This document shows positions 1-38,789 of a stretch of 64,000 nt of DNA, piece after piece (positions within the stretch are counted from its first letter, which is position 1; each line of letters opens with the position of its first letter). The position numbers and the translations under genes are program-made. Origin of the DNA: Paecilomyces variotii (lineage: Eukaryota); assembly GCA_004022145.1 (NCBI GenBank), contig RCNU01000009.1. One strand, written 5' to 3'. The notes under the pieces are model-generated. The model did no database searches, was not told the origin of the DNA, and was given only the letters and a program-made list of their open reading frames with translations.

Positions 1-3000
1 ATACTATTTGTAATTCTACAATTCTACTTAATTATAAATATAGATATGCTATATTATTAGAATAAAGAAGCTTATTTTAAGAAGAGTATAGGTAATTCTA
101 TATTAAACTTAATATTATAATTTACTGTATAAGAAAAAACCTATTAATCTATAGTATTCTGATAAAGGGAATTTATAATCTATTGCTTATATATATACTC
201 TAATTTATATAAAATTCTATAGGGCCTTTAAATCAGGGATTCTAAAGAATCTAATAAATAATTAATATTTAAGATAAGGAAAATTTTAAATAAAAGATTA
301 AATGTATTATTATTATTATCTAACAGAATAAAATTATATCTACTATTATATTCTAGAAGAGTAGATAGATTAATATTTATAATTATTAGTATAAGTACCT
401 TCTAGAAAGATATATTAATAATCTCTGCATATATTATCTTTATAGCCTATAAAATATCTTTATTTAGCTAGAGGGGGCGGACATTAATTCTATAACTTTT
501 GTTTAATATGTCTTTAAGGGTAAATAATTAGTTATATTAATAAAAAAGGCGGCTTAAATACTGGTAAACTGGTTAGATTATTCCTAAATTAAGTATAAAT
601 ATAAAATATCTTTAATATACTATATAGTCGGCGAGGGCTTAAAGATACTAGATCTTCGCGATAATATATTAGAATTATAATAAGTAAAGGTTATTAATAC
701 TAATAGAAGACTTTCCTATATTAGTTACTAAATCTTATCTTATATAGTTAAAACTTACTAAATAAATAGTTTAAATAATATAATTAGAATAGCTAAAGGC
801 TAAAAGATTAATCTATAATTACTTTAATATAAAAGCTATAATAAAAAGATTCTAAGTAGAAAATAATTATAGCAAAAAGTAGAACTTCTAAATTATAGAA
901 GGGTTAAAGAGTAATAAAAAAAGTATCTAAGGAGATAAAAAGAGGGATTTATATCTAGCTGCTTTATTTACTATCTAGTTCTTTATTTACCTCGCGTTAT
1001 TAGATTATCTACCCTTTAAACTAATTAAATGCCCGGATTAGTCTATATATAAAAATTAACCCTCCTAATTCTAATAGAAAGCCTTAATTAAGAGATATAT
1101 TAAGATTATAATTAATTATTAGGCCCAATAAGCAGCTAAAATTACTTAGCCCTGATTCTAAGGATAATAATCTATTATTTAGTTAAATTATCTGAAATAA
1201 TAAATAAATGTTTATTTCTAATTTTTTTTAGGATTTTAAATTTTATTCCTCTTCTATCTCTATTAATATTAATATTTATACTAATAATAGCTCTTTTCCT
1301 CCTATTTAATTAATATCCTATATTTTACTCTTCTTTATAGATAAATAGTATCTATAGCAGTGTTAATAGCCTTAAAATAGCTATAGAAGGATATCTTTAA
1401 TATAAAACACATATAGGATTCTGAAAATTATATAATTTATAGCAGAATCGCGGTATACAGTCTAATAAATTATATATATAGGTTATTAATTATTAGTATA
1501 GCAAGAACTAGAGATAAATATATCTAGTATATGCTTTTACTATGTAATTACTAAATATATCTTCTTATACTAGCTGGTCTAATATAAATCTATAAGTCGA
1601 CCTAACTATATTATAATTTAAGCTTACCTAAATAGATATTAGCTATTAGAAATATAGAAATCTAATAATATACTGTTATCTTTAGCCTAGCAGCTATAGA
1701 ACTAGTATTAGATTACTCTCTGCTTATTATTAATTTATAAGGATATCTTTTAAAGCCTCTCTATAACTAATCTTAAAATCAGCTATATTACCCCAATTAT
1801 AAAAGATATAATCCCAGAATTTAATATAGATTTGGCAAATATCTTAAAGGATAGGGAATAAAATAACTCTATAGAGGATTTAAATAATTTTAACTTAATC
1901 TTATTTAGGAATAATTAGGTCTAGTTTAATTATTTATTTGCTATCTTTAAGAGTATAATAAATAGATCTATATTATTACTCTAGATTTTAATATTATATA
2001 AATTCTCTTATAGGGGAAATTACTTTATAAATAAAAGTATTAATAACTTAGTATTATCTATAATAAGGAGCAGGCGGGGATAATAAGGGGAAAGGAAGAT
2101 TATATATATAATGAGTATAATAATAATATCTGTAATATTCTTAGATAATAGGAATAACTATATAAGTATTTCCTATACTAAATAGTTAATTATTTTAGTT
2201 ATTAATAGGATTATCTGTTTTTTTCTTATAAGAGAAATAACTTCTTTCTGTTTTACCTAGTTTCTCTAATAAAAGAAATAGTCCTTTCTTATTAACTACC
2301 TCTTATATATTTATTTAATTCCTAATTATTAGGGTTTAAATTTAAGCTGTATAACTTAGTAGTACACTAAGCTATTTTTACCTAAATATTTAGTATATTT
2401 AGCCCTTAAGAATACACCCTCAGGTTATTATATACTATAAGATAATATAAGAATAATATAACTAATACAACTAGCAGAATATAAGGCCCTGCTTCCTACA
2501 GATATAAACATATATAATTAGCTTTATCTAAAGTCTTAACTCAAGTAATATTATATATATAAAGAGGACTTATTTAATTAGAAGTCTATAACTTCTTTAG
2601 AATTATCCTTTTAATTAATAGATATAGTTAATAATTAGATAATAGATATAATAGAGAAAGAGGCTATAGCTAAATAAGATACTAAAGAGCTAATAAGAAT
2701 TATCTTGCCTAATTAATTACCTATATCTATTAGAAAAAACCTATCTAAAAGAAAAATATCTATATAATAAAATATAGTAAGAAGAAATAGAAAAGTTTTT
2801 ATCTGCTACTTAAAAGTATAAATAATTATTTTAATATACCCTTAAGCACTATAATAGCATAGTAAAGTTTAAGAAAGAGGTTTTTAATCCTATAGATTAG
2901 CTCCTTTAAGTCTAGCTTATTATTAGGCTTAAAAGAGACTATAATAAGATCTATAGCTATCTATAATTAGCATAGTATAAAAAAGGGAGATTAAAAATAC

Positions 3001-3584
3001 TTACTTTTAAAAGAACTAGCCTACGGCTTATAGTTATAATATTAAGGGGGGAAAATATTTTAAAGGTCTTCTCTATATTAGTTTAAGATCTCTTAGGTTA
3101 GCTAAGGCAATCTATTATAAGAACTAGGCATATTAAATATAATAGCAGTAATTATTTATAGGGCTATATTATATTAGCTACTAATTATTATTTATAGAAA
3201 GAGTTACTTAAGGGGTATATAAGATTTAATAATAAGCAAAAATATAAAGAAAGAAAGATTTTAAGGGAAAGCGCAAAAGATTCTAAAAGGAAGAAATATA
3301 TTTATATTTCTCGCTCTCACTATTAGATTACTTAGATAACTTATATATATATATTATTAGATAAAGGGTATTAAGTAATAAGGATTAGATTAGGATAACT
3401 AAATAAATAGGATTAGATTAAGATAATTAAGCAAATATATAAAGAAGTATTAGTTATATAATATAGCTTAATTTAATATCTTAAAGATTAAGTAAAGATA
3501 AATAAGCTAATTATATAATTAGCAAGTATATATTATAATAATAATTAGCTTAAGAAAGATAGATTATATTTGCTTATAAATAAA

Positions 3585-4470
3585 AGCTAGCTTCTTACTT
3601 AGGTAATAATTATTCCCTTATAAGAGAAAGCTAGCTTCTTACTTAGGTAACAACTTATTCCCTTATAAGGGAAATATTGCTTTTTATTTAGGTAATAACT
3701 TATTCCCTTATAAGGGAAATATTGCTTTTTTAGGTAATAATTATTCTTTTATAAAGGAAATATTGCTTTTTATTTAAGTAATAACTTATTCCCTTATAAA
3801 TAAAAGCTAGCTTCTTATTTAGGTAATAACTCATTCCTTTATAAGGGAAATATTGCTTCTTACTTAGGTAATAACTTATTCTTTTATAAGAGAAATATCT
3901 CTTCGGGTAATAATTATTCTCTTATAAGGGAAATATTGCTTCTTACTCAAGTAATAACTTATTCCCTTATAAAAGAAATATTGCTTCTTACTTAGATAAT
4001 AACTTATTCCCTTATAAATAAAAGCTAGCTTCTTATATAGGTAATAATTATTCTCTTATAAGGGAAAGCTAGCTTCTTACTTAAGTAATAACTTATTCTC
4101 TTATAAGGGAAATATTACTTCTTATTTAGGTAATAACTTATTCTCTTATAAATAAAAGCTAGCTTCTTACTCAGGTAATAACTTATTCCCTTATAAGGGA
4201 AATATCGCTTCTTATTTAGGTAATAACTTATTCCCTTATAAGAGAAATATCGCTTCTTTAAGTAATAATCATTCTTTTATAAGGGAAATATTACTTCTTA
4301 TTTAGATAATAACTTATTCCCTTATAAAAGAAATATTGCTTCTTACTCAGGTAATAACTTATTCCTTTATAAGGGAAATATCGCTTCTTATTCAGGTAAT
4401 AACTTATTCCCTTATAAAGAAAGCTAGCTTCTTACTTAAATAATAATTATTCCCTTATAAGGGAAAGCTA
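3585..4470 (+). repeat. Tandem array, ~20 copies of a ~40-44 bp unit built from two palindromes
   Basis: Unit approx. GCTTCTTACTCAGGTAATAACTTATTCCCTTATAAGGGAAATATT, read directly; one further copy at 5780-5820. Confidence 0.95.
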
Positions 4471-4693
4471 TCTTAGTTTAGTTCTTTATTAATTATTTAT
4501 ATAGCTTATACTAGCAAGCTGTATAATACCTAAAACTAAGAATAAATCTTTTAGAAAAGAAAGAGAGAAGATTAGGTAAAAATAATTTATTCTATTTATA
4601 TTTGCAGGTGTAGCCTATATAACCCTTTAATATAACTAAGATCTAACCTATAATAGAGATATAAAAGTAATAAAATCTAGTAAGATAATAATT

Positions 4694-5691
4694 ACCCTTG
4701 CGGCAAATAGCAAGGATCTTAATATAGAGTTTATACTAAGTTTCTTATAATAAGCAGTAATATCTTAAGCAGCTAGTATAGCAGTATAGGGATAAGACTT
4801 ATTATATTTAGCCTTAATCTTTATATTATTAGTAATAGGGTAATAGTTATAGAGCAGTAATATTTTAAATAGCTAATATAGTAGTAATTGGTAATATCCT
4901 ATAAAGCAATAATATTTTAAATAGCTAATATAGCAGTATAGAGATAGGACTTATTATAGTTAGCCTTAACCTTTATACTATTAGTAATAGGTAATAGTTA
5001 CAGAGTAATAATATCTTAAACAGCTAATATAGCAGCATAGGGATAGGACTTGTTATAGTTAGCCTTAACCTTTATACTGCAGAGGAGAACTATCTTAAAC
5101 AGCTAATATAGCAGTATAGGGATAGGACTTATTATAATTAGCCTTAACCTTTATATTATTAGTAATATAGATAATAATTATAGAGCAGCAATATCTTAAG
5201 CAGCTAATATAGCAGTATAGGGTAAGACTTATTATAGTTAGCTTTAACCTTTATATCGCGGAGGAGAATTATTTTAAACAGCTAATATAGCAGCATAAGA
5301 ATAAGACCTTTATACTATTAGTAATATAGGTAATAATTGCAGAGTAGCAATATCTTAAGCAGTTAATATAGCAGTATAGAGATAAGACCTTTATACTATT
5401 AGTAATATAGATAATAGTCGCAGAGTAATAATATCTTAAATAGCTAATATAGCAGTATAGGGATAGGACTTATTATAGTTAGCCTTAACTTTTATATTGC
5501 GGAGGAGAATTATCTTAAGCAGCTAATATAGCAGCATAGGGGTAGAATCTTTATACTATTAGTAATATAGGTAATAGTCGCAGAGCAGCAATATTCTAAG
5601 CAGCTAATATAGTAGTATAAGGATAGGACTTATTATAATTAGCCTTAACCTTTATATTATTAGTAATATAGGTAATAGTTTTATAATTATT
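4694..5691 (-). repeat. Tandem array (11 units, mostly ~80-100 bp) derived from a ribosomal protein S14/uS11 coding fragment
   Basis: Minus-strand translation gives ITNNIKIKAKYNKSYPYTAILAA*DITAYYKKLSIN..YIKI, matching uS11 [42 protein letters not shown] almost entirely through C>T/G>A changes. KVKA and PYAA survive literally in the copy at 5012-5080. Confidence 0.85.
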
Positions 5692-7899
5692 ATAATTATA
5701 GATATTAATCTTTAAAAAACAAATCTTAGATTAATAATATTAAAGGAAAATAAGTTAAAATAGTAATAAATAACTTTATGCTTCTTATACAGGTAATAAC
5801 TTATTCCCTTATAAGGGAAATTTAAGATTTTACTTAAATAATAACTTATTTTTAAATTAGAAAAGTACTATATTTTTACTATCTTATTACTTAGGAACTT
5901 ATTATAATAAAATTATATATCTACTAAAGAATTAAATAAATCTAACCAGATAAAATATAACTATACTCTTATATATTTAGGTCCTATAGCAATTTAAACT
6001 GGTTTAATTAAACTATATCTTCTATTTATATTATATCTAAAGCAAATATTTTAAGAATTTAATACTATAGTTCCTATCGCAATATTTTAAATATAATATA
6101 TAGTTTATAAGAAGAGAATAGGCGAGCTCTTAACTTATAAAGGTATAGTTTAGCTTAATTACTATATGCCTCTAGCTATTCTAATTAGATAAGAATACTT
6201 AGTTTTGCTTTTTAATAACCTATATAATATTAAGATTAGTTAGTAAGGAGAAGATAGTATAAGAGGGCGGGAACTAACTGAGTCTATTATTAAAATTAAC
6301 TTAGTTATACTATAATTGCGGCACTTGTTCTAGTTTATAATATTTAAGAAAAATTTTCTATATTAGGCGAATAATAAAGATAACTGCTTATTAGAAGGGA
6401 TCTTTTACCTGTAGCTTTTTCTTAATCTAGATCTTTATAAACCTCCCGCTTATCTTTAATTCCTTATATTTATTAGTCCCCAGTTAGATAATATAATATA
6501 TAAGGATAGTAGTATAAATAATAGTAAGTTAGTATTCTTTCTATTTAAGATTAGAGGTTAAAATCTCTTAGGTATATTAGAAGTAATTAGTAAGGTTATA
6601 ATTATTATTCTAGTTATATTCTGCAATATATTTATTAAATATAGATATAATCTATTCGGGTATACTTATTTATAAGAAGGTATAGACCTATAGCTAAACT
6701 ATAGAACCTCTATAAGGCACTACTATAAATAACTATATTTTATATAGCTCTTTAAAATTATTTACGCAAAATATACTGCTACTTAGCTAACTAAGGAATA
6801 CTTAAATATAGCTTTCTTAGATAGTTATAAAAAGAAAATAAATAATAGTCTCTAGCCTAGCCGCTAGTCCAATAATGCGTTTAATATATACTATTATGCT
6901 GTAGAAATACTAGAACTAGTCTGACTAAGAGGGGATAAGGAGATAGGGATTTATAGAGTATATAGATTTAGGCTTATTAGCTGTCTTTTAAAGGATCTTT
7001 ATAAAGTTAAATAGGAGAATTCAGTATCTAGTATTTAGCGCCTAATTTAAATTCTAACACTTAAGATTAATGCGGTTATATATATAAATAAAATATATCT
7101 TTAGGTAGATCTATTATATTAATAGCTATAAGTCCTCTTTATAGTTATTAATAATCTTCTATATAGTCGCGATATAGATACTATAACTATATCCCTTTAT
7201 TTGCTGCTATAGATATTATATAATATAGTTATATATATAGATAGCGTAGAAATAATTAAAAAAGATTATTACCTATATTATAATATTAGGTCTATAGTAA
7301 AAAGAATCCCCTAGTATAAGTCTAGTAAATTGTTCTATAATAATTTATTAATAGATATATTAAGCTATATGCTTATTATAATAAATAATTAATGCCTTAA
7401 GATATGCTAATTAAGGCTTATCTAAATCTCTAATAAAGAGCTATTTATTTAATATTAGAATCTATTAAGTAAGCAAAAAGATATCTAGATCTATATAGAG
7501 CCAATAGTAATAATATAAATAGTCCTAGGAATTAATATAGCGTAGAATATAATATAATAATATATATTAGTTGCTAGTAACTATATAATAGCTAAAATAA
7601 TTAATAATTATAACTGCCTCCCGCGCTGTAAGTAATAAAGTAAGCTTTTTATTTTAAGCTTATTACTGTAAAAAGCTAAGCTAAATTACTTTAAAGAAAT
7701 AAAGATATATAATTATAATTATAGGAAATATCTAGATTACTATATTAGTAGTAGATTTAATACTTATTAGTATAAGAGAAATTACTTATAATTATAAATT
7801 ATAATAGGGGTATAAATAGAAAGACTAACCTTATAAGAGATTTCTTAAATAAGATCCTTCTATATATTTGCTTAATAGAGGAATATATTAATAAAATAG

Positions 7900-8801
7900 A
7901 TAATTAATACAAAAGCTGTTTTATAATAAGATTCTAGCTTAATAAATTTATCTATAGGAATTATAAATTATTATTCTATCTATAAACTACATTAATTACT
8001 TTTTATTACTTATTCTAACTGTACTTATTTATGCTAATAAGCACAATTATTATAATTAATACTAGAGGAGGATTTAAATAAGAGTAAGTAGATTTCTTCC
8101 TATAAGATATTCTTAGGCTTACCTAACCTTAACCCTGTTATTTTATTTAAGGTATATTAGTAGTAGTTCTTAATTAATTAAGTAGTAGGGATAAATAGCA
8201 GTAGGTATATTATTAATATAATAAGCCTTTATATAACTATAAGACCTTACTTATTAAACTAGATAATATATTTCTGTATATTATATACCTAGAATTTAGT
8301 TACTTATATTACTTATATTACTTAGGTTAACCGCTCTATATATTCAGCAGCTAGTATAATAACTCTTATTTATAGAAATAATAGAGGATAAGATATTTAG
8401 CAATTACCCTAATATATATTTATTGCCTATAAATAGATATTATACTTATCTTTATAAGAATTAAATTCTTTAGCCTATATTGCTAAAAGATTAATAAGAA
8501 GCGATAAATATTTATAAGAGAGAAGTTATAATTTAACAGCAATATTATAAAAGAGATAAGAGATATATTCTATATTAATATATTTGCGTAACTTAAGGTC
8601 TAATATAGCTAATATACTATTTAGGTATAATTAATAGTATATACTTAGAATAGAGCTAGTTACTTCGCTATTACCTTTAAAGTTAGAGGTAGTTTTAAAG
8701 AGATTCTTATACTTTATAGGTATTAGCGGGTTTTTAGGCTCTAAAAATATAGGCTAATTCTTAGATATTAATAAAGAGTAAAGCTCTGCAGGCAGACCCA
8801 T
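7900..8801 (-). pseudogene. RIP-destroyed gene-like frame of unknown function
   Basis: Frame starting ATG GGT CTG CCT GCA GAG (MGLPAE...) at 8801 whose stops are mostly TAA/TAG, as expected from RIP of CAA/CAG/TGG. The lower boundary is approximate. Confidence 0.3.
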
Positions 8802-10944
8802 TATAAAATTATCTTAATTTCCCTTATAAAGTAAATTAGCATTTTCTATCTTAAGTATAAAGTTATATTTATATAGTTTAAGATTAATATTACCTCTAAA
8901 AGTATATATATAAAAAGTTAGAATTATATTATGCTATTATTTATCTGCTAAGATATTCTCTTATTAAAAAAAGAACCCCTCCTATTTATTAATAAAGATT
9001 TATTAGAAATAATATTATTATTATATACTTAATCTTATAAAATTAAGTTCTAAGATCCGCTATTTATATAAAATACTATATATAATTAGTTTAGCATCTT
9101 CTTTAAAAATAAAACAGATATAGTCTGCAAGTATCTATATATATTTTAAAGAAAGAGTAATTATTATAGCTTTATCTAGTAACTCTCCCCTATATATAAT
9201 AATAAACTATATAAATTATTTATAATCTTTTGCTAATTAAAAGCAGCGCCCTTATATAAAATATAGAAAAAAATTACTAATATCTAACTAATATTTAAAG
9301 TTTTAATAGTAGAAAGTAAAGATAATTATAGATAGAAGATTATTGCTATTAAAATAACTAAGTACACAGTTTAGGTTACTAATAAGATAAAGATAATTAA
9401 GGTAAAAAGTCCTTATAAAAGCCTTAGGTTTTTATAAAGGTTTTAATCTATAATCCTTATATAGATAGTTATTGCTACTATAATCAATATAATATTATTT
9501 ATAGAGTATATTATAGGCTTTATTAAAGTTAAATAAAGGGTAAGATATAGTTTTAATAAAGTTAAGCGCTGCTAATTAGTTAATAACTTAATCAGATAAA
9601 GTAATAGATAGATAAACTTACAGGTAATTACTATAGGGGTTTTATAATTTATAGATATAATAGTTTAATTATAAAGATTATTATTATCCCTATCTAGATT
9701 AGGGGTATTAACTACCTACTTAGGCAATTTACTAAAGAGTAATAGATTAAAACTAAAATTACTTATTACCTTATTATTACTTTTAACATTTATAGTATAG
9801 GCTTTACCCCTATTAATTAGAGTATTATAGTTAAATAAGTCTTAAATAAAACTATTGCTTTTTTCTATTTTAATTAAGTTTATTAAGAGTATAGAGTATT
9901 AACTTATTAGTAGCAGGCTAATTAGATATTTAAATATTAAGGCTACTAATAATTAACTGGGTAGGGCTTTAATAAAGAAGTTAAAAAAATTTAAAATAAG
10001 CTCTAAAACAGCTATTAATTAATCTTTATAGTCTTAATTTATATCTTCTACTAGTATCTAAAATAAGGTTAAAATTGCTATATTAGTATTACTATTAATA
10101 ATAAAGGGGATATTAATATTTACTGCTAGTAATAGCTAGCCTATTATAAGTATCTGCAAATTATTAATAACTTTAATATCTTATATTTTAAGGGGGTTAT
10201 TAATAATTAATATAAAGACTCCTTATTAGATCTTAGTAATATTACTAGATAATTTAGAGGCTAAATAACTTTATTAATATAGCCTTAATTATAATAATAT
10301 AATTGCTATAGTATCTTCTAATAGTTATATTCTCTTATATATTTGCTTATTAGAAGTTCTCTAACTTAAATTAAAATAGGATTATTAAGAACTTAAAGTA
10401 CTGCTAAATTGGCTAGGGCTGCTAAAAAAATCCTAAATAGCTTATTAATTTAATTCTTATTAGCTATTAAGTTTTTTTAATAATATCTTTAATTAGCAAG
10501 GCATAGTATAGAATTAATAGTATGGCACTTTATTATAATAATAAGATTATAAATTAATTTTTAATAAAAAAATACTAAGATAATAGGATTTTTTTTCTCA
10601 GGGGCTTATAATAGATAAATGCCCTAGGGTATCTTACTGCTTATAGATTCTCTAATTCCCTTATAAGGGAATTAAATTAAATATAGCGGTTAACTATTAT
10701 TTCTAAATTATACTAGTTTACTAAGATTTTACTAAAAAAAAATACTTAATTATATAGTAATACTATCTGTATTAGAGCTAATATAGGAGGATTATAATAT
10801 TATTAAAAAGAAATCGCTTAATAAATATTATTAATAATAATTAATTAAAATATTTAGGTATTTAGATAGTTAAGTAATTGTTAGTTTTATTTTAAGGATA
10901 TTTTATAGACTTTTATTATAATATTAAACCGCGTTATATTAGTA

Positions 10945-10950
<6 letters not shown>

Positions 10951-10988
<38 letters not shown>
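10951..10988. repeat. (TA)19 microsatellite
   Basis: Read directly. Confidence 0.95.
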
Positions 10989-10989
<1 letters not shown>

Positions 10990-11017
10990 TGGATATATAT
11001 ATTCTATATATATATCT

Positions 11018-13581
11018 CTATGCGTACCGTATAATAGACCTTAATATCTTAAATAAGCCTCTAACTACCTACTTGCTAGAACCTATATTAAAGCAATTAC
11101 CTTATGCTTAATCTTATTATACTGCTATAATAATTATAATTATATAGATTAAGCAATTTCCTTTTTATAAGATATAAAAGTCTTCCCTTATTAACTCTAG
11201 TAAAGATACTGCTACTACCTTCTAATAAAATCTTAATCTTTTATATAATTAGCCTCTTTTGCAGCGTAATATTATTAACCTAATATTACTAATAATATAG
11301 TTATAAAAATTTTTATTAAAATTATTAATAATATTAAATTAATAGGACTACGCGCTAAGAAATAATAAATTACTAGAACTAGTCCGCTGCCTAACTATAA
11401 CTTGCTACTATATAGCTAATAATTTTCTCTACTCTTAATTAGCTCTATTAATAATCTCATTCTACTATAATGCCTAATAGTATTAATAAATATAGGATTA
11501 AATAATTATTACTACTATTATTACTATTACTATCTTCTATATAAGATTTATAATATAAATACTTAAAGAAATTAGTTAGGGATTAATCTCTTTAATTACT
11601 TTAATCTCTAGTCTAATTCTTAATTATAGCCTAATATTTATCTACTAGTTCCTTAATAGAGACCCTTAATATAGAATCTTTTCTCTTAGCCTTTAAATAT
11701 TTGCCTAGTCTCTTATATTCTTTATTAATTATATATATAAATAAAGCTTATAATTGCCTGTTTACTACAATATAATTAAAGGTTAGTAAATATTAAATCT
11801 TAAGATAAGAGTAATAATCGATTAAAAAGTTATTAATAAAACTTAAAACTATTATAAGTTACTATATCTATTTTACTAGATTTAGGAGAGCTAACTGCTT
11901 TAATAAGATTAGAACTAATAGATAAACTAACTATAAAAATTTATACTAAAATAGTTGAGAAAAGCGGTCTATATAACTCTCTATATTAATTATTACCTCA
12001 GGTAGTAATATACTTTTTATATAGTTATAGAAGTCGATTATATATTGCTAGTAAAATTAGATAATTTTAGCTTATAAGTTAAGAGCCTTATATTCTATAT
12101 CTTTATTAGTACCAGATAGAAAAAGTAATTAAAAGAGATAATAAATAGCGAGTTTATTAGTTGCTTTTTGCCCTACGCATATATTTATATTATACTATTA
12201 TACAATATAAAGAAAAAGCGACTAATAAGAAATGCTATAATAATTAATTTTATGCAAGATATCTTAGGGATCTATTAAAACTAATTGCGTAAGGAGAAAT
12301 TTAGCTGCTTATTAATATTGGCTATTAAATAGTAACAGCAGTATATCTAGTAATTGCGGAGCCTTAGGGGTAAATTGCTTATTAAGAATATTATTATCTT
12401 CTTTGCAAAGTATTTAGGTTATATAGTTCTATTTAGCAAGAGAAATCTATTAAGTCTTAGGTCTGCTAATACAATAGACTATTTTAATTAAATTATTAAT
12501 CTGGGAATACTAGTACTAGAAGGTATTAATAATAATTAAGCTAGGTTTCCCTTATAAGGGAATTGTAGGCATATATATATTTAATTCGCGACTCTTTTAA
12601 ATAAGTAAAAGTTGTAAGTTAGAATAATAGCCGGGTAACTGTAGTTAAACACTACTTATTATATAAAGAATAATATGCTTTATATTGCTATAAACTAATA
12701 AACTAATTTATAGAAAAGCTATTTTAATCGGTAATATATAAGACTTATAGGATTTCTTATTTAATAATCTAATATACTGTATATTAGATATAGTTAGTAA
12801 ATTCAGAATTGTATTTAATATATTTAGTAAGAGCAACCTATTAATCTCTATTATTATCGGGCAATATTAATAGTATATAGTTATTATATAATTAGCAGTT
12901 AAGCTAGTAGAGTAATATGTCTATTTATAATTATTATAATTAGCAGAAATTATTATAGAAGCTATTATGATAATATAATAGGAATTAAATACTACTATTA
13001 TAAATATTATAAGCCTATTAGAACTTAACAGCATTATTAGAGAATTCTAGAGATTAATTAGCTAAGAATTATTGCAATATAGTAATTTAATATTAGCTAG
13101 CTAAAAGCTCTATTAATTATTAATTTACCGCGAGCTATTTAGTAACTATAGGGGTTTTAATTAGGTTAATTAAAGGGGATTGTTTAAAGATATACTTAAT
13201 TTAATCTATAATCTACTGAGCTTACTTAAATATAGCCGGTTTATTAACTAATAATTAAAGATAATATTATAATTGCTACTATTCTTTTATAGAATAAATA
13301 GCTTATATATAATATTCTAGTAATATCTAATAAAATCTTTGTTAAAAGCTATATTACAGCTGTATAACATATTAATAATTAATAGATTAATTATTGTTAT
13401 AAGATTCTGACTAAACTAATAAGATACTTTATAATTAAACTTAAATCGACCCTAATAAGTGCTCTTAAGCACTTTCCTATATAAACTTATTAGTATTGAT
13501 ATTAGTTATTTATGCTTTTTTAGTCTTTAGAGTATTAGTATTAGTTAATAATTTTTTGCGCTTTGCAGGGGTTAGACTTAT
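11018..13581 (-). pseudogene. RIP-destroyed ParB/Srx-like protein resembling the N-terminus of fungal DUF3723-family proteins
   Basis: De-RIPped motifs in one frame: NRSIDHRHV.QL (13400-13360), ELLAGQHRI..L (13110-13071), WWACDIYD (13021-12997), then LPDNDG. Start and end are approximate. Confidence 0.5.
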
Positions 13582-14584
13582 TATATATAAAGATCTCTTT
13601 TACTTATTATAAAATAGTTTTATAGCTAGAAAGAATAATCTAAATTTTCTGAGATATATCTATATAGAATATTATTAGCTATCTTGCAGTCTAATAAACC
13701 GATTTTATTTCAGTAAGATTGGGGCCTTTTAAGTCTCTATTTTAAGCCCCTTTAAGTAGTAGTAATAATAGTAGTATATATATTATACTAATCCATATTA
13801 AGGTGTTAGAGGATAGGTCTACTTAAGAAAATTATATGCTAGTATTATATTAGGATCTTTAAACAGAATTATTAGTTATTAAATAATAGTATATAATATA
13901 ATTTTAAGAATATTATACTATTATACCTATCTGTTTAACTAATAAGGTTATTTAGTATCTATTAGTAGAGGTTTATTAGATTAGCTTTATAGCTTAATAA
14001 GCTAGCTGTTTTATATTAAAATTAGTTATATATCTGGGTAAGTATCTTATTATTAATTTGCTATTTAAAAATTTTTTACCCAGAGGCCTAAAGAAGCGGT
14101 TAATATTAAAGGGGCTTAGACCTGTTTAATAAAGCTAATAGATATAAGATTAAATTCTACTATCCTTAACTATTGCGGACTAAGAATATTTAAAAAGTTT
14201 TTAACCTATTAATACTATATCTATTTATATATAATTAGTTTATATATCTCCTTCTCTTTATTTAAAACTTGTAAGATAGCCTAAGTCTTATTTATATTGT
14301 AAGAATAATATTTCTATACTCTTTAATTCTTTAAGGATATATAAGATATATTTTTAATCTTTTAGATTCTATTCTATTTATCCAGTAAAAAAATATATTT
14401 ATAGCTTATTTCTCTTATAAGGGATAGAGGGGTTTTTATAATAATATATTATATCTAATTAGAAAGCCTTAATAACTTCTTAGTTATATAGAAGTCTATC
14501 TAATATTTTACTAAAATAAAATTATCTCTTAAGATCTTAGGAATTCCTGCTCCAATTGCTTTATATTAATATTATATCTCCTTA

Positions 14585-15010
14585 ATCTCTTATTACCCAG
14601 GTAAAAAGAATTTATTCTATTTTTATTATTGCTTATTACTTAGATAAGAAGAATTCTTTTTTTATTATCTCTTATTACCCAAATAAGAAGAATTCTATTT
14701 TTATTATTGCTTATTATCTAGGTAAGAAGAATTCTTTTTTTATTATCTCTTATTACCCAGGTAAGAAGAATTTTATTTTTATTATTGCTTATTATTTAGG
14801 TAAGAAGAATTCTTTTTCTATTATCTCTTATTACCCAGGTAAGAAGAATTCTATTTTTATTATTACTTATTACCCAGGTAAGAAAAATTCTATTTTTATT
14901 ATCTCTTATTACCCAGGTAAGAAGAATTCTATTTTTATTATCGCTTATTACCTAGATAAGAAGAATTCTATTTTTATTATCGCTTGTTACCTAGGTAAGA
15001 AGAATTCTAT
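14585..15010 (+). repeat. Tandem array, ~11 copies of a ~39 bp unit
   Basis: Unit approx. TTATTATCTCTTATTACCCAGGTAAGAAGAATTCTATTT. Its core is the reverse complement of the CTTCTTAC-CAGGTAATAA core of the 3585-4470 array. Confidence 0.95.
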
Positions 15011-15599
15011 TTTATAGATTTTTTAGATTTTTATTATCTGGGTAAAAGAAGATTTTATTTCCCTTATAAGGGATAAAATTATTCTTACTTAAGTAATAAA
15101 AAATTTAGGAATTTTATAAAATGAAAGTATTCTTACCTAGGTAAGAAGTCTAAAATTAATAATTAAACCCTTTCTTTTATAGTAAATTAGTACCCCTAAC
15201 CTAAACCTAAGGTACTTTTTTTCCCTAGTATATAAGGTCTTATATAATTAAGACTATAATAGATTTATATAATAAAAACTTTAATAAGCTAATAGAATAT
15301 TAAAAGAGTTTTAAATAAATTAAATAATCTAGAGATAAGTATAAGCTATATAAGGTATATAAGATATATAAGATAGAGAAATAAAGAGGCAAAGAGCTAA
15401 AATAGTAACTTAATAAATTATTAAGATAGATTTATAATAGCTAGAATAAATAAAATAAGATAGTTAATAAGGATTTTATAATATTAGAAAGTTCTTATAG
15501 AAAAAAGTCTTTATTTACTTTTAAATTTTTAAGAAACTTATTATCTATAGAGAGCTTAAGAATTAAATATTAATTAATATACTTGCTAAAAGATATAGA

Positions 15600-17700
15600 T
15601 AAAAATACCTATCTTATTATTAGACCCTAGTTAAATAGCTTTATATAGTCTAAATATAATCCTATTAAGAATACTCTCTTAGAGATATAACTAAGTAAAA
15701 AGAGTAATTATTTCTTATATATATATAATACTATTTCCTATTATTTCTCAGTAATATATTAATATTTTAATATTTTATCTCTATTACTTCTATTATTATA
15801 TAAGATATTACCTAACTAAAAAAAGGACTAGATAATAAGAAGATTATAGGAAGAAATATTAATTTTAATAGAATATATTAGAATTATAAATATATTATAT
15901 AGTATAGGTTAAAAACTTTTTTAAACAGTCTATAATTAGAAGAAATAAACTATCTTATAAAGAAAAAGTATCTAATTAGAATATTATTTATTAAACTAGA
16001 CTTTTCTATTATATAAATAAAGTAGTATTTTTAAAGTTTAGATAATATTTAGGGAGCTATCTTATTTAAAGCGCTTCTTATTTTTTTATTAATAATATCT
16101 ATATATTCTAATAATATCTTATATAATTAAAAAAGATAAGTTCTAGAGTAATATTCTAAGACTATATTAAAACTAGTAAGAAGCTTAATAATATTTAAAA
16201 TATATTAATTAGCTTTTTCCTAGATTAGCTTATTATAAATTATTCTTATATAGGTTATAAATTTTTATATATAGAATAGAGGTTTAAAAGGTATATTATA
16301 ATAGGCTATAGGCTAGGAGAAGAAAAACTGCTAAATTATATATAAACTTTATTAAACTATATCTATCTTTATTTAAGACTTATAATATTATTTTTATTAT
16401 AGTAGATAATAGTAATTATAATAGAAGGAGCTATTTTAAAACTAGAGATAGCTGTTTAATTTAATAATTATATAAAAAAAAAGTTTATTTTAATATTTAA
16501 ATCCTATATAAGAATTAGTATTATATTATTTAAGTTTTTAAGATCTTTAAACTAAGAGAAGGTATAGATATAATAAGACTAGATAAAAAGAATAAAAAAG
16601 ATAAAAAGAATAAAAAGGATAAAAAAAAAAGATTAATAAAAGAAATATAATTACTAGTAATTTATTAATAAAATAATATTTTAATACTCTCTTAATCTTA
16701 AAAGATTAATTCTTTTATCTTAATTAGGTAAATAAAGGTATAAGATAAGCCTATTTAATTAAATATATATACATTTAATTATAAAGCGCTTATTAAATAT
16801 TTTAATACTATTAAGATTATTTAGCAGTTAAATTAAAGTAAGCTAATAGATAATATTAAGCTTAATTAATAGATAATAGAGTAAGTCTTAATTTTAAATA
16901 TATTAAGCTTTTATATACTAATTAGGTTCTTATATAAATATTTAAATACTTATCTAGTAGATATTAGAAAGCTTATTAATTTAGATAATATAGCTATAAC
17001 TAATAGATTATTAAATATATATTTATTTAGGTAAATATATAGTCTAATAGCAGAAGAAATAAATAGAGAATTAAATACTTAATCTATATAAAAAGCTTAA
17101 TAGGTAAGAAATAAAATAAGATAATTTAATAAACTCTTATTTCTATATAGTTTAGCAATTTTAAAGAGAATATAGTAAAAAAGAATCTTTAAAAGGAATA
17201 TTTTATTTAATAGAGCTATTCTCAGCTATAAGTCTATATATAGGCTTAAAGACTTCTACTAGTTTATTACTATTAAAATATTTTATAATACTTTTTTTCT
17301 CTTTATCTAAGGATAGAGGCAGTTTTTAAAACTAGCTAAGTATATTTATTATATATAAAATATTATAATTAATAAAGCGGGATAGTTATAATAATTCTAA
17401 TTTTAAAAAAGAGCTAATAAAATATTTAAGAGTATTAAGATAATTAGGCGCTAAAGAAACTAAATATAATATATCTCCTAAAGAATATCTATTTTTACTA
17501 ATAAATCCTCTATAAATTATAAAAAAAAATATTAAACCCCTTAGTTAATAGCTATAAACTAAGTAAGTATAATATAAATATTTATATTTTTAATTATTAT
17601 ACCTAACTATATTAGTTTAGTATATTTATTTAGCTAATAAGAGAAGCCGAAGATTAATAAATCTAAGATATTTTAATATTTATATTTATAGAAGATATAT
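15600..17700 (+). mobile_element. hAT-like transposase relic (RIP-destroyed)
   Basis: De-RIPped motifs in the expected order: FI.VDN.N (~16395), HLI.K.LL (~16775), PLSWW (~17537), IP....L.RLFS (~17600-17635; hAT C-terminal dimerisation region). TIRs not identified. Confidence 0.4.
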
Positions 17701-19529
17701 ATAATTATACTAGCTTAATATATATTTTAAGCTAATAAAAAGACCTAAATAATAGTAGGTTTAAAAAGTTCTAATTTATAATTTTATCTTAATCTAATAA
17801 TCTAACTATAGTAAATTAGATTTTAATCTCTATGCTATAAAGGAAAGAATAGGAGAAATAATATTATTATATAGGGGCGGGGAAATAGTATTCTTATATA
17901 AAGATAGAGGGGAGAGAATAAAATATTAAATTATATAGCTTCTATAGGAAGTAAGCTATAAACCTATTATATTCTACTATTATATCTTTTATATAAACTA
18001 AATAGTAGCTATAATAGGATACTATCTATATTAATCTATATAGAATTAATAAAGATAGGAGAAGAACTATAGATTAGTTTAATTAAATGTTTAGTTTAGC
18101 TTAGAATAGCTAAAGTATTTAGATAAAGTTAAGGAGTATAAATAGCTAGTAGATTTTAGTATTAATTAATTCTTTAAGCAATTTAGCAATTATTATCTTT
18201 TTATATATTTTTTTAAAATCTTTAATTTTATAGTCCTAGATTTTTATAAAAGGTTAGCAGCTTATAAGAGGGGGAAGAGATAGAGGAATAAAGGGCCTAA
18301 GAAGAATTATATAAATATATATATTTTATATAGACCTTTAAAAAATATTTAAAAAGTATTAAATAGTAAAGTAATTATAGTTTAATCTTATTAATTTTAT
18401 AATTTATAAGATTCTATTTATTTTATTAATAAATATATATTTTTTTTAATATTTAGATATTAAAATATTAATTAGTTTTTATTAATATTCTTATTATTTA
18501 TATTTAGGCTGCTTTATTTAATAAGCTGCTCTATTTAGTAATTAAGCTACTTTACTTAATAAGCTATTCTATTTAATAAGCCGCTTTACTTAATAAGCTA
18601 CTCTGCTTAATTAATATAATTCTCTATTAATTAGATTATCTCTTAAGCTTTTTAGTAATTATTAAATTAGTTTTATTTAACTACTTATTATATTATTAAA
18701 AAAGCCTAAATTATCTAAAGATTTAATTAAGTAAGAGGAAAGGGTCCTATTAGTAATTTATAATTTAAATAAAAATTAAATTCTGTCTATATAAAAAGCA
18801 GTATTAACTTTTAAAGTTCCTTATTTAATGCTTTAAATATAACTATAAAGGTATTAGTTTTATAATAATATATAAAATAATGCAATTATATTATCTGAAT
18901 TATAGGAAGAATTACTTATATAATAGATATTATCTATAGATTAATATAGAGTAAGTCTTTAACTTATTTAAGTTTAAGGAATAATAAGTCTTCTTATAAA
19001 TTAAGATAGCAAGGTTTTAGTTAAATAAGAACTAGGCATTTATTTTTATTAAGTATCTTATAGCTAAAGGGGGGTAGGCTATAAGAAATTATTAAATATT
19101 GCTAATTAAGCTAAGTAAAACATATAGCCTAATATTTAATTTAGAGATTTAGTATATATCTTAAAATAATAAACTATATAAATACCGCCTTTAAACCCCT
19201 TAGCTAGGTATATTATATATAAGATAATAAAATAAAATCTATTATATAATCTAGATTAGTAGTTTAGTAGTATTTATACTAGATTTCTGCCTTTTATATA
19301 TAGGGAAATAATAATTAGCTTAAACTTATAAGACCTTAACCCTATAATTTTAAACTATTTAAAACTAATCCCTAGGTTAAATTATCTTTTTTTATATTTA
19401 GGCACATTATATTATATATAAAATATATAGAAATATATTAATTTAGGGGAGGGGATAAACTAGAAAAAAAAAAAAAGATAAAATTTAAAGCTAGATTTAA
19501 ACTAATAACCTTTTTATTTTAAAACTGCC

Positions 19530-19755
19530 CTATAGCTAATATTATTATAGCTAATATTATTATAGTTAGTGCTATTATAGCTAATACTGCTATTATAGCT
19601 AGTATTATTAGTATAGCTAATACTATTAATATAACTAATATTGCTAATATAGCTAATACTGCTAGTATAGCTAGTATTACTATAACTAATACTATTAATA
19701 TAGCTAATACTATTAATATAGCTAGTACTACTATAGCTAATACTACTAGTATAAG
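19530..19755 (+). repeat. Degenerate 15/18-bp tandem repeat, probably a former coding repeat
   Basis: Repeated TATAGCTAATACTGCT(AG)-like units with lengths in multiples of 3. Confidence 0.7.
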
Positions 19756-21639
19756 TATAATAGAGTAGAAGAATAAAAGAGCTAATAAAATAAAGAAGCT
19801 ATATAGATATAATAGAGCAGAGAAATTAGCCTTTATTTTCTTAACTTAATATAAGAGATAGAGTAATAATATAAAATTAGCTTTATTATAAATTATATAT
19901 ATAGATTATCTTTAATAATAAAGAATATACTTAAAATAGCCTTAAATATAATATTCTTAGGCATAGGACTATCTAGAGCAGTCTTAAAGACCCTCTTATA
20001 ATTATACTTTTAAAGAGTTTAAGAGATTTAAATAAAAATTAAAAGAAGTAGAGAAGCTAATAAAATAGAGGAGTAAATAAAATAAAAGAGCTAATAAAGC
20101 AGAGAAATAAAGGAGCTAATAATATACTCTAAAAAATACCTAATTGTCTATATATTACCTTATATATATTTTATTAATATCCTAGGATTATCTAACTATT
20201 ATAGCCTATATAGGCTATTAAAGCCTATTAATTAAAATATTAGTTTCTATTATTAAATAATAAATAATATAGGACTAATTTATTTTCTCTTCTAATAGAG
20301 TAAAAAAATAAATTAGGCTATTATCCTTAGAGCTGCTAGAGATATATTATTAAAATAAATATTATACCTCTAGTAATATAGGAAAGAAAAGAGAAAGCTA
20401 ATGAATAAAAGCTTATATAATAAGTAAAAGCTAATATAATAGGCTAAAGGTTAAACTAGCTTATTATATTAAAGAAGAGGAAAAAGAAAAAAAAGAGAAA
20501 GAAAAGAAGATAAGAATAGAAATACTCTTTTATATTTAATAAATAAGGTATAAATTCTCTCTCTACTATAAATCTAAGGGGGAAAAAATATAATTATTCT
20601 CTAGATAAATATAAATAAGAAAGATTTTAAATAGAAAGAAATATAGGGTAAAGATAATAAATAATAGCAATTATTAATAGTAGGAGAAGGCCTAATAATA
20701 ATAAAAAAATAATAAAAGAATATAAAAATATAAAGCTATAATAAAGAATAGGAAGGGAGAGAAAAGATAAAAAATTTAATATAAGAATAGCTAGAGTATA
20801 ATATTATAATTAATATTCTAAATAAATTAATAAAAAGCTAGAATTTTAAATAGAAAAAAATACTTTAAAAGTAAGTTTTTATAATAACTAAAAATAATAA
20901 GCTCTAATTAGCTTATTTAGATATTAAATAAGTTTTTAATAGAATATTCTATATCTTACTAATTATTATTATTTTCTTTACTATTATTTATAGCCTCTAA
21001 TTCCTCTATATATAATATTATAATATCTAGAATATTAGAAGAAGGAGTTAAAGGGGTAAAAGGGACCGTATAAATAACTTAAATATATAAACTATAGGTT
21101 AGTATAAGAAAAAGCTATAGAATATCTATTTATATATTAAGACCTTTAATAGTCTATATTAATCTTCTATAGGTCCCTAGAACTATCTAGCCTATATTAA
21201 AGTCTTAGATAATTAAATAGTGCCTTAAATAAGATATTAGAGAGTATTTATATGCAGGAGATAGCTATATAGTTTAAACTCTTTATAAATTCTAAATAGA
21301 AGAGATTTAATATAGCCCGGTCTAGTATTATACCCTAGGATTTATATATATTAATAGTATATGCTATTATAATAGAGAACTAGGTCTATTAATAATTAAT
21401 ATAATTATAAGTAAACTCTTAATAGAATTAAAAGATAAAGATAATTAGATAGCTATTATTATCCTAGCAGAGATATAGCCTCTAATTATTATTAAAGCAG
21501 ACTAAAAGAGCTAATAATAGATCTTACTAATAATTATTACCCTAAATCTATATAATATTAAAAAGCATACTAAAAAAGCTATTTATTAACTCTTACTCTA
21601 CTTAGATATTCTCCTTTAATATAATAAAGTTTTAGATTA

Positions 21640-22545
21640 CTTAGTTTTAAATTAATAAATAACCGACTAATATAAATTTCTAACTATTAAATTTCTTATT
21701 ATTAGATTAGACTAAGTTTTAGATTAATAAATAACTGATTAATATAAATTTTTAACTATTAAATTTCTAATTACTAAATTTCTTATTATTAGACTAAACT
21801 AAGTTTTAAATTAATAAATAACTAATTAATATAAATTTTTAACTACTAAATTTCTAATTACTAAATTTCTTATTATTAGACTAGACTAAGTTTTAGATTA
21901 ATAAATAACTAATTAATATAAATTTTTAACTATTAAATTTCTAACTACTAAATTTCTTACTATTAAATTAGACTAAGTTTTAGATTAATAAATAACTAAC
22001 TAATATAAATTTTCGACTATTAAATTTTTAATTATTAAATTTCCTATTACTAGACTAGACTAAGTTTTAAATTAATAAATAACTAATTAATATAAATTTT
22101 TAACTACTAAATTTCTAATTATTAAATTTCTTATTACTAGATTAGACTAAGTTTTAGATTAATAAATAACTAATTAATATAAATTTTTAATTATTAAATT
22201 TCTTATTACTAGATTAAATTAAGTTTTAGATTAATAAATAATTAACTAATATAAATTTTTAACTATTAAATTTCTAACTATTAAATTTCTTACTATTAGA
22301 TTAGACTAAGTTTTAAATTAATAAATAACTAACTAATATAAATTTTTAATTATTAAATTTCTAACTATTAAATTTCTTATTACTAGATTAGACTAAGTTT
22401 TAAATTAATAAATAACTAACTAATATAAATTTTTAACTATTAAATTTCTTACTATTAGACTAAACTAAGTTTTAGATTAATAAATAACTAACTAATATAA
22501 ATTTTTAACTACTGAATTTCTAATTATTAAATTTCTTACTAGTAG
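21640..22545 (+). repeat. Tandem array, 11 units of 73 or 87 bp
   Basis: Unit approx. ATTAGACTAGACTAAGTTTTAGATTAATAAATAACTAATTAATATAAATTTTTAACTATTAAATTTC..., with or without a 14-bp internal duplication. A 12th unit resumes at 23684. Confidence 0.95.
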
Positions 22546-23683
22546 TATTATAGCACTAAATAGATATTACAATAGCTATAAGATAAATTAGAGTTATAAA
22601 AGGAAATAGCAGAGTAAAATTATTAGCAGAATTATTAACTGCCTGCTATATTAAGAAAGGATTAAGAAATAAAAGATTTTAAAGATAAAAGTATTTAGAT
22701 TTTTACCCTGAATTTTTCTTCTTTTTCTTCTCTAGTTTAAAGTTCTCTATTATATTGTTTTACTAGGTTAAATCTTTAATAAATTTAATTTAATTTGTTT
22801 AAATATAATATTACTTTAAGCTTATTTTATTTATTTTATTTTATTTCCTAGGCTTTCTGTTTAAATATATTATGCTGCTTAAGAAACCTATTTATTGCTT
22901 AATAAAATATTAGACCCTTAAATTAAGTTCTCGCTATAATAAAGCTTATTAATAAATTTAATTGCTATTAGAATAATTCTAAAAATAGAGGTAAATAGCT
23001 TAAATAAAAACCTATAAAAGATACTTATTATATCTTATATTATTAGGATAATAGGCTAAAGGATATAATATTAAATAAGTTCTATAAGAAGCTAAAAGCA
23101 GATTTTATAGAAATCTAGAGAATCTAATATTTTATTATTAATTTCCTTTAGAATAAAATTTATAAATTAAAAAATATTAAATACTTAAATAATTATAATA
23201 TTAAATATAAAAATAATAATAATAATCTTACCCGCTAGCTTTACTAAAAGAAATATTATATTAAAGATATTAAATAATAAGTTATAGAACTTATTTATAA
23301 TTAAAAAAAATATAAAAAGGCTCTTATTAATATAGCTCTTTATTTTAATTATAAAAATATCTTAGAATCTATAAGTAATTAGCCTTAATACTCTATTAAA
23401 TTACTTAACCCTCCCCTGCTTATTAATAGAAAAAATCCTAAATTTAAAGATTAGTTATTATAGATTAAAAATAAGCTTAAGATAAATACTAACTATTATA
23501 GAAGTAAATATTTTTATATTATATATATTTAAAACTACCTAAGTAGAAAAGCTATAGTATATATATTTCCTAGATTTTATAAAGATTTTAGCCTCCTCTT
23601 TTAAATAGCTAATAAGATCTTTAACTATCTTTAAGCTATTTTTTATAATTTAAATTATTATTAGAATATAAAGTATTATAATA
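22546..23683 (+). mobile_element. Truncated LTR retrotransposon: putative 5' LTR (22546-~22810) plus gag fragment
   Basis: De-RIPped gag KLPDPPLLTDGKDPKFEDWL..IKNKL..NADHY at ~23398-23500. Putative LTR termini TATTATAGCAC...ATATAATA (RIPped TG...CA). Confidence 0.7.
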
Positions 23684-24473
23684 ATTAGATTAAATTAAGT
23701 TTTAGATTAATAAATAATTAAGTAATATAAATTTTTAATTATTAAATTTTTGATTAAATAAAAGTTCTAAATTAATATATAGCTTAAAGGCTTTAGCCCT
23801 ATATTATTTATTATTAAGATAATTAGTCTAAGTATTTTATAATAGTTAACTTTATAATAGCTATATTAACTTAAGAATTTATAGGTATATTTCTAGTAAT
23901 AGTTAAATACTAATATAAGTTATAGATCTCCTTTAATTATAGCCTAATATTATAATTTAGTAATCTGCTATTATAAGATTTATTAGTTAGAAATAATTTA
24001 GTAATTGAAAATTTATATTATTTAGTAATTTATTAATCTAAAATTTAGTATTTTATTAGATAAGGCTTAGTAAACCCTATTAAAATTCTCGCCTAAATAT
24101 TAACTCTCTATATCTTTATTAAATTAGGTTAGATTTAAATAGAAATTAATTTATTTTATATATTTAATTTAACTTTATAATATATTAAAAATTTAGCTTA
24201 ATCTAACTTTATTTTACTAAGATATAAAGAGATAAAGTTTTATTATTAAAAAATCTAAAATAAGAAATAGCACTAGTCTATTTTAATTTTTCTACTATAG
24301 CTTATTAATTAAGGCAAAATCTTTAAACCTTAATAACTTATGCTACAGTGGACTAATTTAAAAAAGGAATATATATTTATAATCCTTAGAATAAGCTCTA
24401 TTAATTAATATATAGAATAATATTAAATTTTTAAAGGGGAAGTTTATTTATATATATAATTTTGCCTTATAGA

Positions 24474-27400: not shown

Positions 27401-27891
27401 TAATAGCAAATTCTTATTAAAGCTTTTAAAAGTATATTTTAGCTTAATAATTTATCTTATTTATAGTAGTCTTAGTTTTATTAATATATTTATATACTAG
27501 GCAATAGTAATTATATTATTTTGGCCTATAGCTAATAATAATATGCTTAATAAACTCTTCTAAAATTATTAGCAGAAATAAGGGAATTAGAGTAAATATT
27601 ATTAATAATATTAACTCCTAAGTAAGAGCTATATAATATTAAGATATAGGCTTAGGAAGCGGGTTAGAATAAATAAAATAAGGTAATTAATACTAGGACT
27701 AGTTATAAGATCTTTATTTAGCTAATTTAAACTAGAATAGGCTGTTATAAGTAAGTTTAGTAAATAAGATATAGCTTAAAGAGCTTAAATTTAGATTAAG
27801 TTATATATTAAAGATATCTTTATAAGGTTATATAATATCTTATATAAGTATTAACTAGTAGATCTCTGTCTCCTATATTAGCACTATAATA
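24474..27891 (-). mobile_element. Ty3/Gypsy family B, copy 1: 5' LTR (27637-27891), gag, protease, RT; truncated before RNase H
   Basis: Colinear with 34700-38098. RT core reads YLNNILIY (RIPped YLDDILIY) at ~24930-24950, and GFSNFY..FI at ~24650-24680. Confidence 0.9.
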
Positions 27892-38098: not shown

Positions 38099-38789
38099 AT
38101 TCTTCTATTTTTTAATAAATAGCTCTTACTTAATAATTTCTTATTCCTTCTAAATTTCTGCTTTTCTTTTATATTTATTAAGCTCTTCTTTATATTTAAT
38201 AATCCTTTCTTTCTCTTATTATTAATATATATTTTTATTCTATATTATATTTATTATCTCTACTAATTTAAGAGATATATTTATCTCTTTTTATTTATAA
38301 TAATAATCTTCCTTAGCTATTTTATTTATTTTTTTATTACTTCTTATCTTTTTCTTTAATTTTAATCTTAACCTTAGCTTTTAGTTCTTCTTTCTCCCTT
38401 ATTTTTATTTAATATTTTAATATCCCCTATATTTAGCTCTAATTTATTATAGGAAAATATATTAAGACTTAGTATAAAGTCCTTGAGCAAATAAGTATTA
38501 AGAAGAAAGAGAAGAATATTTAGCTTTAAAGCTTAGAGTAGAGCTAAAAAAAAAGCTCTAGCTATAAACTAATATAATAAACTAATAATAATCTAATATT
38601 AAACTAATACTAAATAATAATAGAAAAAAAAAGCTAATTATTTTATTTTAAATAACTAAAAGAGTATTATCTCCTTACTATTCTTCTTCCTCTCCTGCTT
38701 TACTTATAGACTTTTTAAAGACTTTAAATAAAAGCATATAATCTCTTAACTAATTACATTCTTTATACTAATCCTCCTTATTATACTAA

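Follow-up and report, generated by a model that had tools for sequence, protein, structure and literature searches.

The genome of Paecilomyces variotii holds, in an AT-rich block, a tandem array whose minus strand reads, through many changes, like a piece of a ribosomal protein (positions 4694-5691 of GenBank contig RCNU01000009.1 of assembly GCA_004022145.1, numbered within the 64,000-nucleotide stretch that we analysed and call the window). The locus raises three questions: from what sequence the units were made, how that sequence came to be repeated where it is, and whether the array has any function of its own.

The tandem array comprises 11 units on the minus strand. The starts of a 15-nt core, found 11 times between 5615 and 4784, are 81, 79, 81, 81, 78, 101, 79, 99, 52 and 100 nt apart. 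This upholds the number of units given in an initial annotation of this DNA, and an independent repeat search of the window returned one family, likewise in 11 copies. Searched over the whole window, two motifs of the array matched 7 and 10 times and never outside the array, against an expectation of 0.00 from 100 shuffles. TRF reported periods of 81, 99, 152, 160 and 241 in the array. The units fall into three length classes and are accompanied by a partial leading unit, a truncated unit and a terminal unit (Table 1). Class A spans uS11 from R-E-T-I to D-V-A-A, plus the junction, and class B units carry a GC-richer TTCTCCTCCGCG stretch. The higher-order periods of 160 and 241 nt are due to the alternation of class B with A or C, and this B/A/C alternation is the pattern expected of unequal exchange. 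With head-to-tail units, unit variants and higher-order periods, the array has the make-up of a satellite or minisatellite. Further copies of the array or its flanks were not found elsewhere in the 64-kb window, and Rfam and tRNA scans gave no match in or near the array. Its minus-strand translation contains NNYKTITYITNNIKVKANYNKSYPYTTILAA followed by a stop, as quoted in the initial annotation, as well as ...AILAA(stop)DITAYYKKLSIN, with YIKI in the next frame. All frames are interrupted by stops and the unit lengths are not multiples of 3, so that the earlier statement that this is not a repeat protein stands.

Table 1. Coordinates of the uS11-derived array, its parts and its surroundings in the window
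Feature	Position	Strand	Remarks
RIP-type AT block	1..46000		GC 19.7%; contains the array
45-nt satellite, left of array	3590..4466	+	19.9 copies; palindromic core TTCCCTTATAAGGGAA
Left flank	4467..4693		single copy in the window
Whole uS11-derived stretch	4709..5700	-	partial leading unit, 10 internal repeat intervals and terminal unit
Terminal unit	4709..4784	-	runs on into A-R-C-K-E-L-G-I-N, then frameshift, (L)HIKI.A.T
Truncated 52-nt unit	4885..4936	-	odd junction
Class A units (~100 nt, full-length)	5215-5115, 5035-4937, 4884-4785	-	3 units, plus the partial leader
Class B units (78-79 nt)	5534-5456, 5293-5216, 5114-5036	-	23-nt deletion; 3 units
Class C units (81 nt)	5615-5535, 5455-5375, 5374-5294	-	20-nt internal deletion; 3 units
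Leading partial unit	5616..5691	-	RIP-mutated SGRETI..SSPY
45-nt satellite, right of array	5779..5850	+	~1.6 units; same orientation as left block

For the origin of the units we used as protein query the translated terminal unit with one TAA read through (P0001). A phmmer search with this query against all PDB chains matched 58 distinct sequences, all 58 of them eukaryotic uS11/S14, and the best match (E 3.7e-5) aligned query positions 3-40 to uS11 55-92. At the codon level we sorted the codons of the array into those identical to the reference, those that C>T and/or G>A changes alone could have produced from a codon for the reference residue, and those that are neither, the reference being the uS11 part of protein P0003, a stand-in from another organism than the host. 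The best uS11 match was a minus-strand run of 36 codons from 5691 onwards (SGRETI...DVAA), of which 15 were identical, 19 RIP-derivable and 2 neither. The resulting 34 of 36 compares with a mean of 7.0, an SD of 2.35 and a maximum of 17 when the same 36-residue reference was slid along the rest of the AT block on either strand (~89,000 positions). At the base level, 108 nt were compared with 80 uS11-encoding loci from metagenome contigs, which were found via P0003 and serve as stand-ins for the host gene. The best of these stand-ins (L038) had 102 of 108 bases identical or RIP-derivable, against a background with a mean of 50.2, an SD of 5.4 and a maximum of 74. In the codon and base scans alike the array thus lies 9-11 SD above the background and far past its maximum. 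One of the two unexplained codons falls at a site that is variable among real uS11 proteins (I/V/S/A/C). The other is a change of Ser TCC to TAT/TAC, a transversion common to all units that RIP does not explain and that is presumably older than the amplification.

Standard searches were less informative. Pfam returned no family for P0001 at E <= 10, the PF00411 (Ribosomal_S11) profile included, and none of the 37 candidates from a word-index search of longer proteins with the mutated fragment was scored. An exhaustive HMMER search gave three matches, of which P0003 is a genuine uS11-bearing prediction and was used only as a reference; P0002 and P0004 were rejected as unrelated repeat proteins that score via summed short stretches. 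P0003, a prediction of 321 aa from a public representative library, has one and a half uS11 copies and then a stretch unrelated to them; a faulty gene model or a tandem duplication of uS11 in another organism is the likely explanation. The silence of Pfam on PF00411, both for the translated unit and in a six-frame scan, and the empty word-index search could be taken as signs that the resemblance is a product of chance in AT-rich low-complexity DNA. This reading has practically no probability in view of the uniformly uS11 matches in the PDB, the position of the array beyond the maximum of the ~89,000 background positions and the RIP-like direction and context of the mismatches described below, and the calibrated codon and base scans led us to reject it. 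The derivation of the array units from a eukaryotic cytosolic uS11/RPS14 coding sequence is confirmed.

The extent of the fragment was established with a RIP-tolerant scan in 15-residue windows along the whole uS11 reference, over the 64 kb. All matches fell in the array and were to residues ~41-90, and uS11 residues 1-43 and 98 to the end left no trace anywhere in the 64 kb. The terminal unit extends into non-repeated uS11 sequence, so that the whole stretch represents uS11 residues ~44 to ~97, and since (L)HIKI.A.T can be read after the frameshift in this unit, the end of the fragment lies near residue 97, at ~4709. The window therefore contains a fragment only and no pseudogene, just residues ~44-97 having been found in it. 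About 160-170 nt of uS11 coding sequence was captured, of which the first ~100 nt (R-E-T-I to D-V-A-A with the junction base) became the repeat, and the earlier assignment of ~170 bp to ribosomal protein S14 is supported by the PDB matches and the codon and base tests alike. Since it is interrupted by stops, is confined to residues ~44-97 and has the unit lengths given above, it contains no complete ORF; the array is derived from uS11, yet it is not a uS11 gene.

The changes that separate the array from uS11 genes are strongly directional. Summed over the 80 stand-in loci, a gene G that differs is A in the array in 1655 cases, T in 304 and C in 51, and a gene C that differs is T in 1066, A in 193 and G in 7. 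The mutated fraction also depended on context, with 86% for CpA, 92% for CpG, 38% for CpC and 22% for CpT, and 63% of the surviving cytosines stood in CpT (all from the same five stand-in genes, which are not independent of one another). Measured against the stand-in reference, RIP-type transitions explain 19 of the 21 mismatched codons, and with the directional bias this agrees with the earlier claim that nearly all mismatches are of this kind. Stringent cut-offs for RIP have been set at a product index (TpA/ApT) above 1.15 and a substrate index ((CpA+TpG)/(ApC+GpT)) of at most 0.75, according to the available part of PMC7882544. Both the AT block (1.37 and 0.26) and the array (1.51 and 0.58) pass them, the GC-normal control part of the window giving 0.79 and 1.19. 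The array thus combines the indices, the C>T/G>A direction, a context in which CpT is spared and a repeated nature, and is a RIP-affected sequence by each of these measures.

Comparison among the units showed 32 variable columns in 102 aligned, of which 28 are transition-only, none is transversion-only and 4 are mixed. RIP-type mutation therefore went on after amplification, as 28 of the 32 variable columns hold transitions only. The few non-transition differences, in the 4 mixed columns, belong to class B units. These units also retain a stretch of unusually high GC content, CTCCTCCGCG / CTCCTCTGCA, whose cytosines precede T, C or G. That CpT and CpC persist here agrees with the sparing observed for them, although the survival of CpG is contrary to the 92% loss of CpG elsewhere in the unit.

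The window is sharply divided. From 1 to ~46 kb the GC content is 13-25% per 2 kb and from 46 to 64 kb it is 43-51%, with an abrupt transition at ~46 kb from the RIP block to genes. Units of the 45-nt satellite lie on both sides of the array, which together with its short flanks (4467-5778) is therefore embedded in that satellite; the palindromic repeats that had been reported around the array are real and correspond to this satellite with its palindromic core. Other parts of the AT block are likewise repetitive. A 39-nt satellite at 14585-15013 has 10.9 copies and a 78-nt higher-order period; its unit start, GCTTATTACCCAGGTAAGAAG, resembles the unit start of the 45-nt satellite, GCTTCTTATTTAGGTAATAAC, and because of this likeness the two are possibly diverged relatives. 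Another satellite, at 21632-22550, is extremely AT-rich and has periods of 87, 72 and 15 nt, with higher-order periods of up to 174/246 nt. By eye, the 39-nt and 87/72-nt satellites gave no sign of a coding origin. Between 23500 and 45900 we noted nested dispersed repeats of ~80-90% identity, with direct-family spacings of 10228, 3565-3575, 4329 and ~13432 nt and an 861-nt inverted pair (32411-33271 / 44531-45391); one or two transposons, present in several copies mutated by RIP, are their probable source. The GC-normal part contains ordinary exons, for a cupin (PF00190, 46950-47507, minus strand), a flavin amine oxidase (PF01593, 52220-53530, minus strand) and a threonine synthase C-terminus (PF24857, 58585-59532, plus strand, E 1e-31). 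It also has one complete 5S rRNA gene, standing alone at 60305-60423 on the minus strand (Rfam RF00001, 67.5 bits, model positions 1-120); dispersed 5S genes are typical of filamentous ascomycetes.

We compared contigs and reads of other assemblies with positions 4467-6600. Two assemblies of the same species from two studies (X1 and X2) contain 0.91 and 0.75, respectively, of the sampled words of the window; they may represent the strain of the window itself and are not independent. Among the matches listed, at least 6 contig pieces of X2 agree with the window without a single difference. A further copy of 4469-4654 in X2 departs from it by 14 differences, and the loose end of this copy resembles a unit of the 45-nt satellite changed by RIP. 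X2 moreover has several alternative array joints, one of them a variant of the odd junction of the truncated 52-nt unit. Such a variant recurs in contigs of other assemblies. A third assembly (X3) has diverged copies only, with 27 differences over 4501-4821 and 87 over 5627-6570, and within the array 6-9 differences per ~75 nt. Transitions account for nearly all of the changed places, 127 out of 128 in X3 and 50 out of 52 in X2. Since diverged copies with the same flanks and the same quirks of the array exist, the composite of satellite, flank and array is a dispersed repeat. The composite with its idiosyncratic unit order would then predate the copying, the copies (or strain lineages) having apparently been RIP-mutated independently, and what X3 has may be the orthologue, changed by RIP on its own, rather than a paralogue. 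In two raw-read runs labelled as this species (X7 and X8, ~1.7 billion letters read from each), depth on the array at >=90% identity was essentially zero. The only reads on the stretch covered ~33 nt at 5686-5719 and were flanked by unlike sequence (14 and 19 reads in X7); this is a short AT-rich motif common to another locus in those isolates. The locus is variable among isolates, and its absence at >=90% identity from X7 and X8 makes it dispensable.

We consider it probable that a fragment of uS11 was captured and amplified, that the resulting composite was copied and RIP-mutated, and that what is left is a non-coding relic without function of its own. Our account of the sequence of events, of how the units were amplified, of the capture and of the lack of function is inferred and runs as follows. 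A piece of uS11 coding sequence of ~160 nt (residues ~44-97) would have lodged in repetitive non-genic sequence, beside or inside the 45-nt palindromic satellite. Its first ~100 nt (R-E-T-I ... D-V-A-A) would then have been duplicated head to tail and expanded by slippage or unequal exchange to ~11 units, with two deletion-derived unit classes spreading as higher-order repeats. The composite of satellite, flank and array may next have been copied at least once in the genome, RIP mutation of the composite following amplification and copying. The present state would be that of a non-coding relic, most probably heterochromatic and without its own function. Our best guess for the route of capture is template switching by a reverse transcriptase or filler in break repair, the source being a very abundant mRNA or the gene itself. 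Introns of other uS11 genes bear on this source. In 10 of the 80 metagenome uS11 loci the corresponding region is interrupted by a short intron, placed between RVTG and GMKVK in 6, between SG(R/K) and ETI in 3 and between TFV and HVT in 1. The first of these sites lies inside the captured fragment and the second near the start of the repeat unit, and the array reads through the G-G site without interruption; if the host gene has an intron between RVTG and GMKVK, the fragment came from spliced mRNA.

The proposal that a mobile element made the capture stands in part. The diverged copies of flank, satellite and array mark the composite as a dispersed repeat, but neither a transposon relic nor bracketing terminal repeats were detected, and the dead giant element of the initial annotation is at most a candidate carrier. 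A six-frame Pfam scan of 1-14400 (stops as X) returned no families that would mark transposon protein relics; it missed the uS11 fragment too, and is therefore weak evidence on this point. Direct or inverted repeats of at least 80 nt bracketing the array were not found, and heavy RIP may hide termini. These two results would suit an account that does without a mobile element, in which the array began as a complete RPS14 paralogue or processed pseudogene, whose ends were then deleted and of which an internal piece was amplified. Ribosomal protein mRNAs are very abundant and commonly yield retro-copies, and the read-through between RVTG and GMKVK would point to a cDNA source, provided that the host has that intron. 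We nevertheless hold such an origin to be unlikely: nothing of residues 1-43 or 98 to the end can be traced in the 64 kb, the fragment has units of the 45-nt satellite close by to its left and right, and diverged copies of the composite that include this satellite are better accommodated by cargo of a repeat than by a solitary pseudogene.

Whichever way the fragment arrived, a function for the array now seems doubtful. Even when the codon nearest to the array is picked at every reference residue, a best-case bound that real identity must fall below, the array is at most 74-80% identical to any gene encoding the reference uS11, with a longest possible perfect run of 9-15 nt. It thus lacks the long near-identity to a target that characterizes anti-gene small-RNA repeats, and these values are too low for siRNA targeting or homology sensing, which disfavours silencing; the earlier suggestion of small-RNA or pairing-based silencing of RPS14 is not supported for the present day. 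A tandem repeat of antisense-capable, gene-derived sequence is what one would look for in a working small-RNA source or pairing partner that silences or tunes RPS14 in the manner of Su(Ste) and Stellate. Quelling and meiotic silencing are often found in fungi that have RIP, and before RIP the array would have offered ~1 kb of close homology. Against this stand not only the low identity and short runs but also the absence of the locus at >=90% identity from two raw-read runs, which marks it as dispensable, and the harm that silencing of an essential gene would do; we regard a silencer as extremely improbable. A structural role, for instance as a centromeric or heterochromatin-nucleating AT block in which the gene origin is irrelevant, is hardly easier to credit and in our view very improbable. 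AT blocks with satellites and repeat relics do form heterochromatin and centromeres in RIP-competent fungi, and the block here extends over at least 46 kb with several satellites and nested repeat relics. The array, however, occurs once in the window and is absent or more than 10% diverged in other isolates, so that no specific sequence requirement is apparent. The data sets listed as containing the stretch included no RNA run. An inert RIP relic would be the most economical reading of the array as judged from its sequence.

The array as it stands is a curiosity that reveals no new mechanism. It does show that, besides dead transposons, parts of essential host genes multiplied in tandem can occur in fungal AT blocks degraded by RIP, and that scanning codons with tolerance for RIP can reveal where a sequence came from when standard profile searches miss it, Pfam having been empty here. 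Should the host gene have the G-G intron, the array would document the capture of spliced mRNA into a fungal repeat. Comparison of the native RPS14 segment with the array would tell whether short dispersed homology (~100-160 nt in 11 copies) exposes an essential gene to RIP. A bolder scenario, which we think very unlikely, is that the array before RIP, with ~1 kb of near-perfect RPS14 homology on a spreading repeat and perhaps made from spliced mRNA, endangered RPS14 itself, as it would in a fungus that has both RIP and RNA silencing; the native 160-nt segment would then be RIP-scarred, or the array would have been a selfish silencer that genome defence disarmed. If that were true, the locus would amount to nature's own test of how little homology RIP and silencing can sense.

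In kind the locus belongs with what is already known: RIP relics, large AT regions, capture of gene fragments and satellites made from other classes of sequence. Our literature search, which extended to papers and not to supplementary repeat libraries, found none linking RIP with a satellite derived from RPS14/uS11 or another ribosomal protein. The zeta-eta region of Neurospora, a tandem duplication with 5S rRNA pseudogenes, is a natural RIP relic. Like zeta-eta, the array repeats in tandem part of a host gene for the translation machinery, is riddled with C>T/G>A changes and apparently non-functional, and lies in AT-rich DNA. It differs in its source, a protein-coding fragment of ~160 nt instead of a 5S gene region in a two-copy 0.8-kb duplication, and in having ~11 short units of three length classes that lie within another satellite in a 46-kb RIP block. 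Satellites are also known from transposable elements and from 5S and tRNA sequences, and the Su(Ste) repeats of Drosophila derive from Stellate. As in these, part of a former functional unit has been amplified in tandem, here with higher-order periods of 160 and 241. Unlike Su(Ste), which is near enough to its target for piRNAs, the array shares at most 15 consecutive bases with a uS11 gene.

Plants have gene-fragment-capturing transposons in the Pack-MULEs. For fungi, capture of gene fragments by Helitrons is described in the available parts of PMC4289320 and PMC5148889. Like the cargo of either kind of element, the array stems from a short stretch in the interior of a host gene, lacks the gene's ends and sits in a non-genic repeat of which there is more than one copy. 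Unlike in Helitron or MULE carriers, no termini, Rep/Hel or transposase relics or target-site duplication could be demonstrated around it, and unlike typical captured cargo the fragment has been amplified in tandem. The setting is that of the large RIP-affected regions or AT isochores of Pezizomycotina, as portrayed in the available part of PMC7882544, with a GC content of ~20%, a product index above 1.15, a substrate index below 0.75 and degenerate repeats and satellites. Such regions are described there as transposon graveyards; the one analysed here differs from the AT isochores in that partial account by holding, among its relics, a satellite made from a fragment of an essential host gene.
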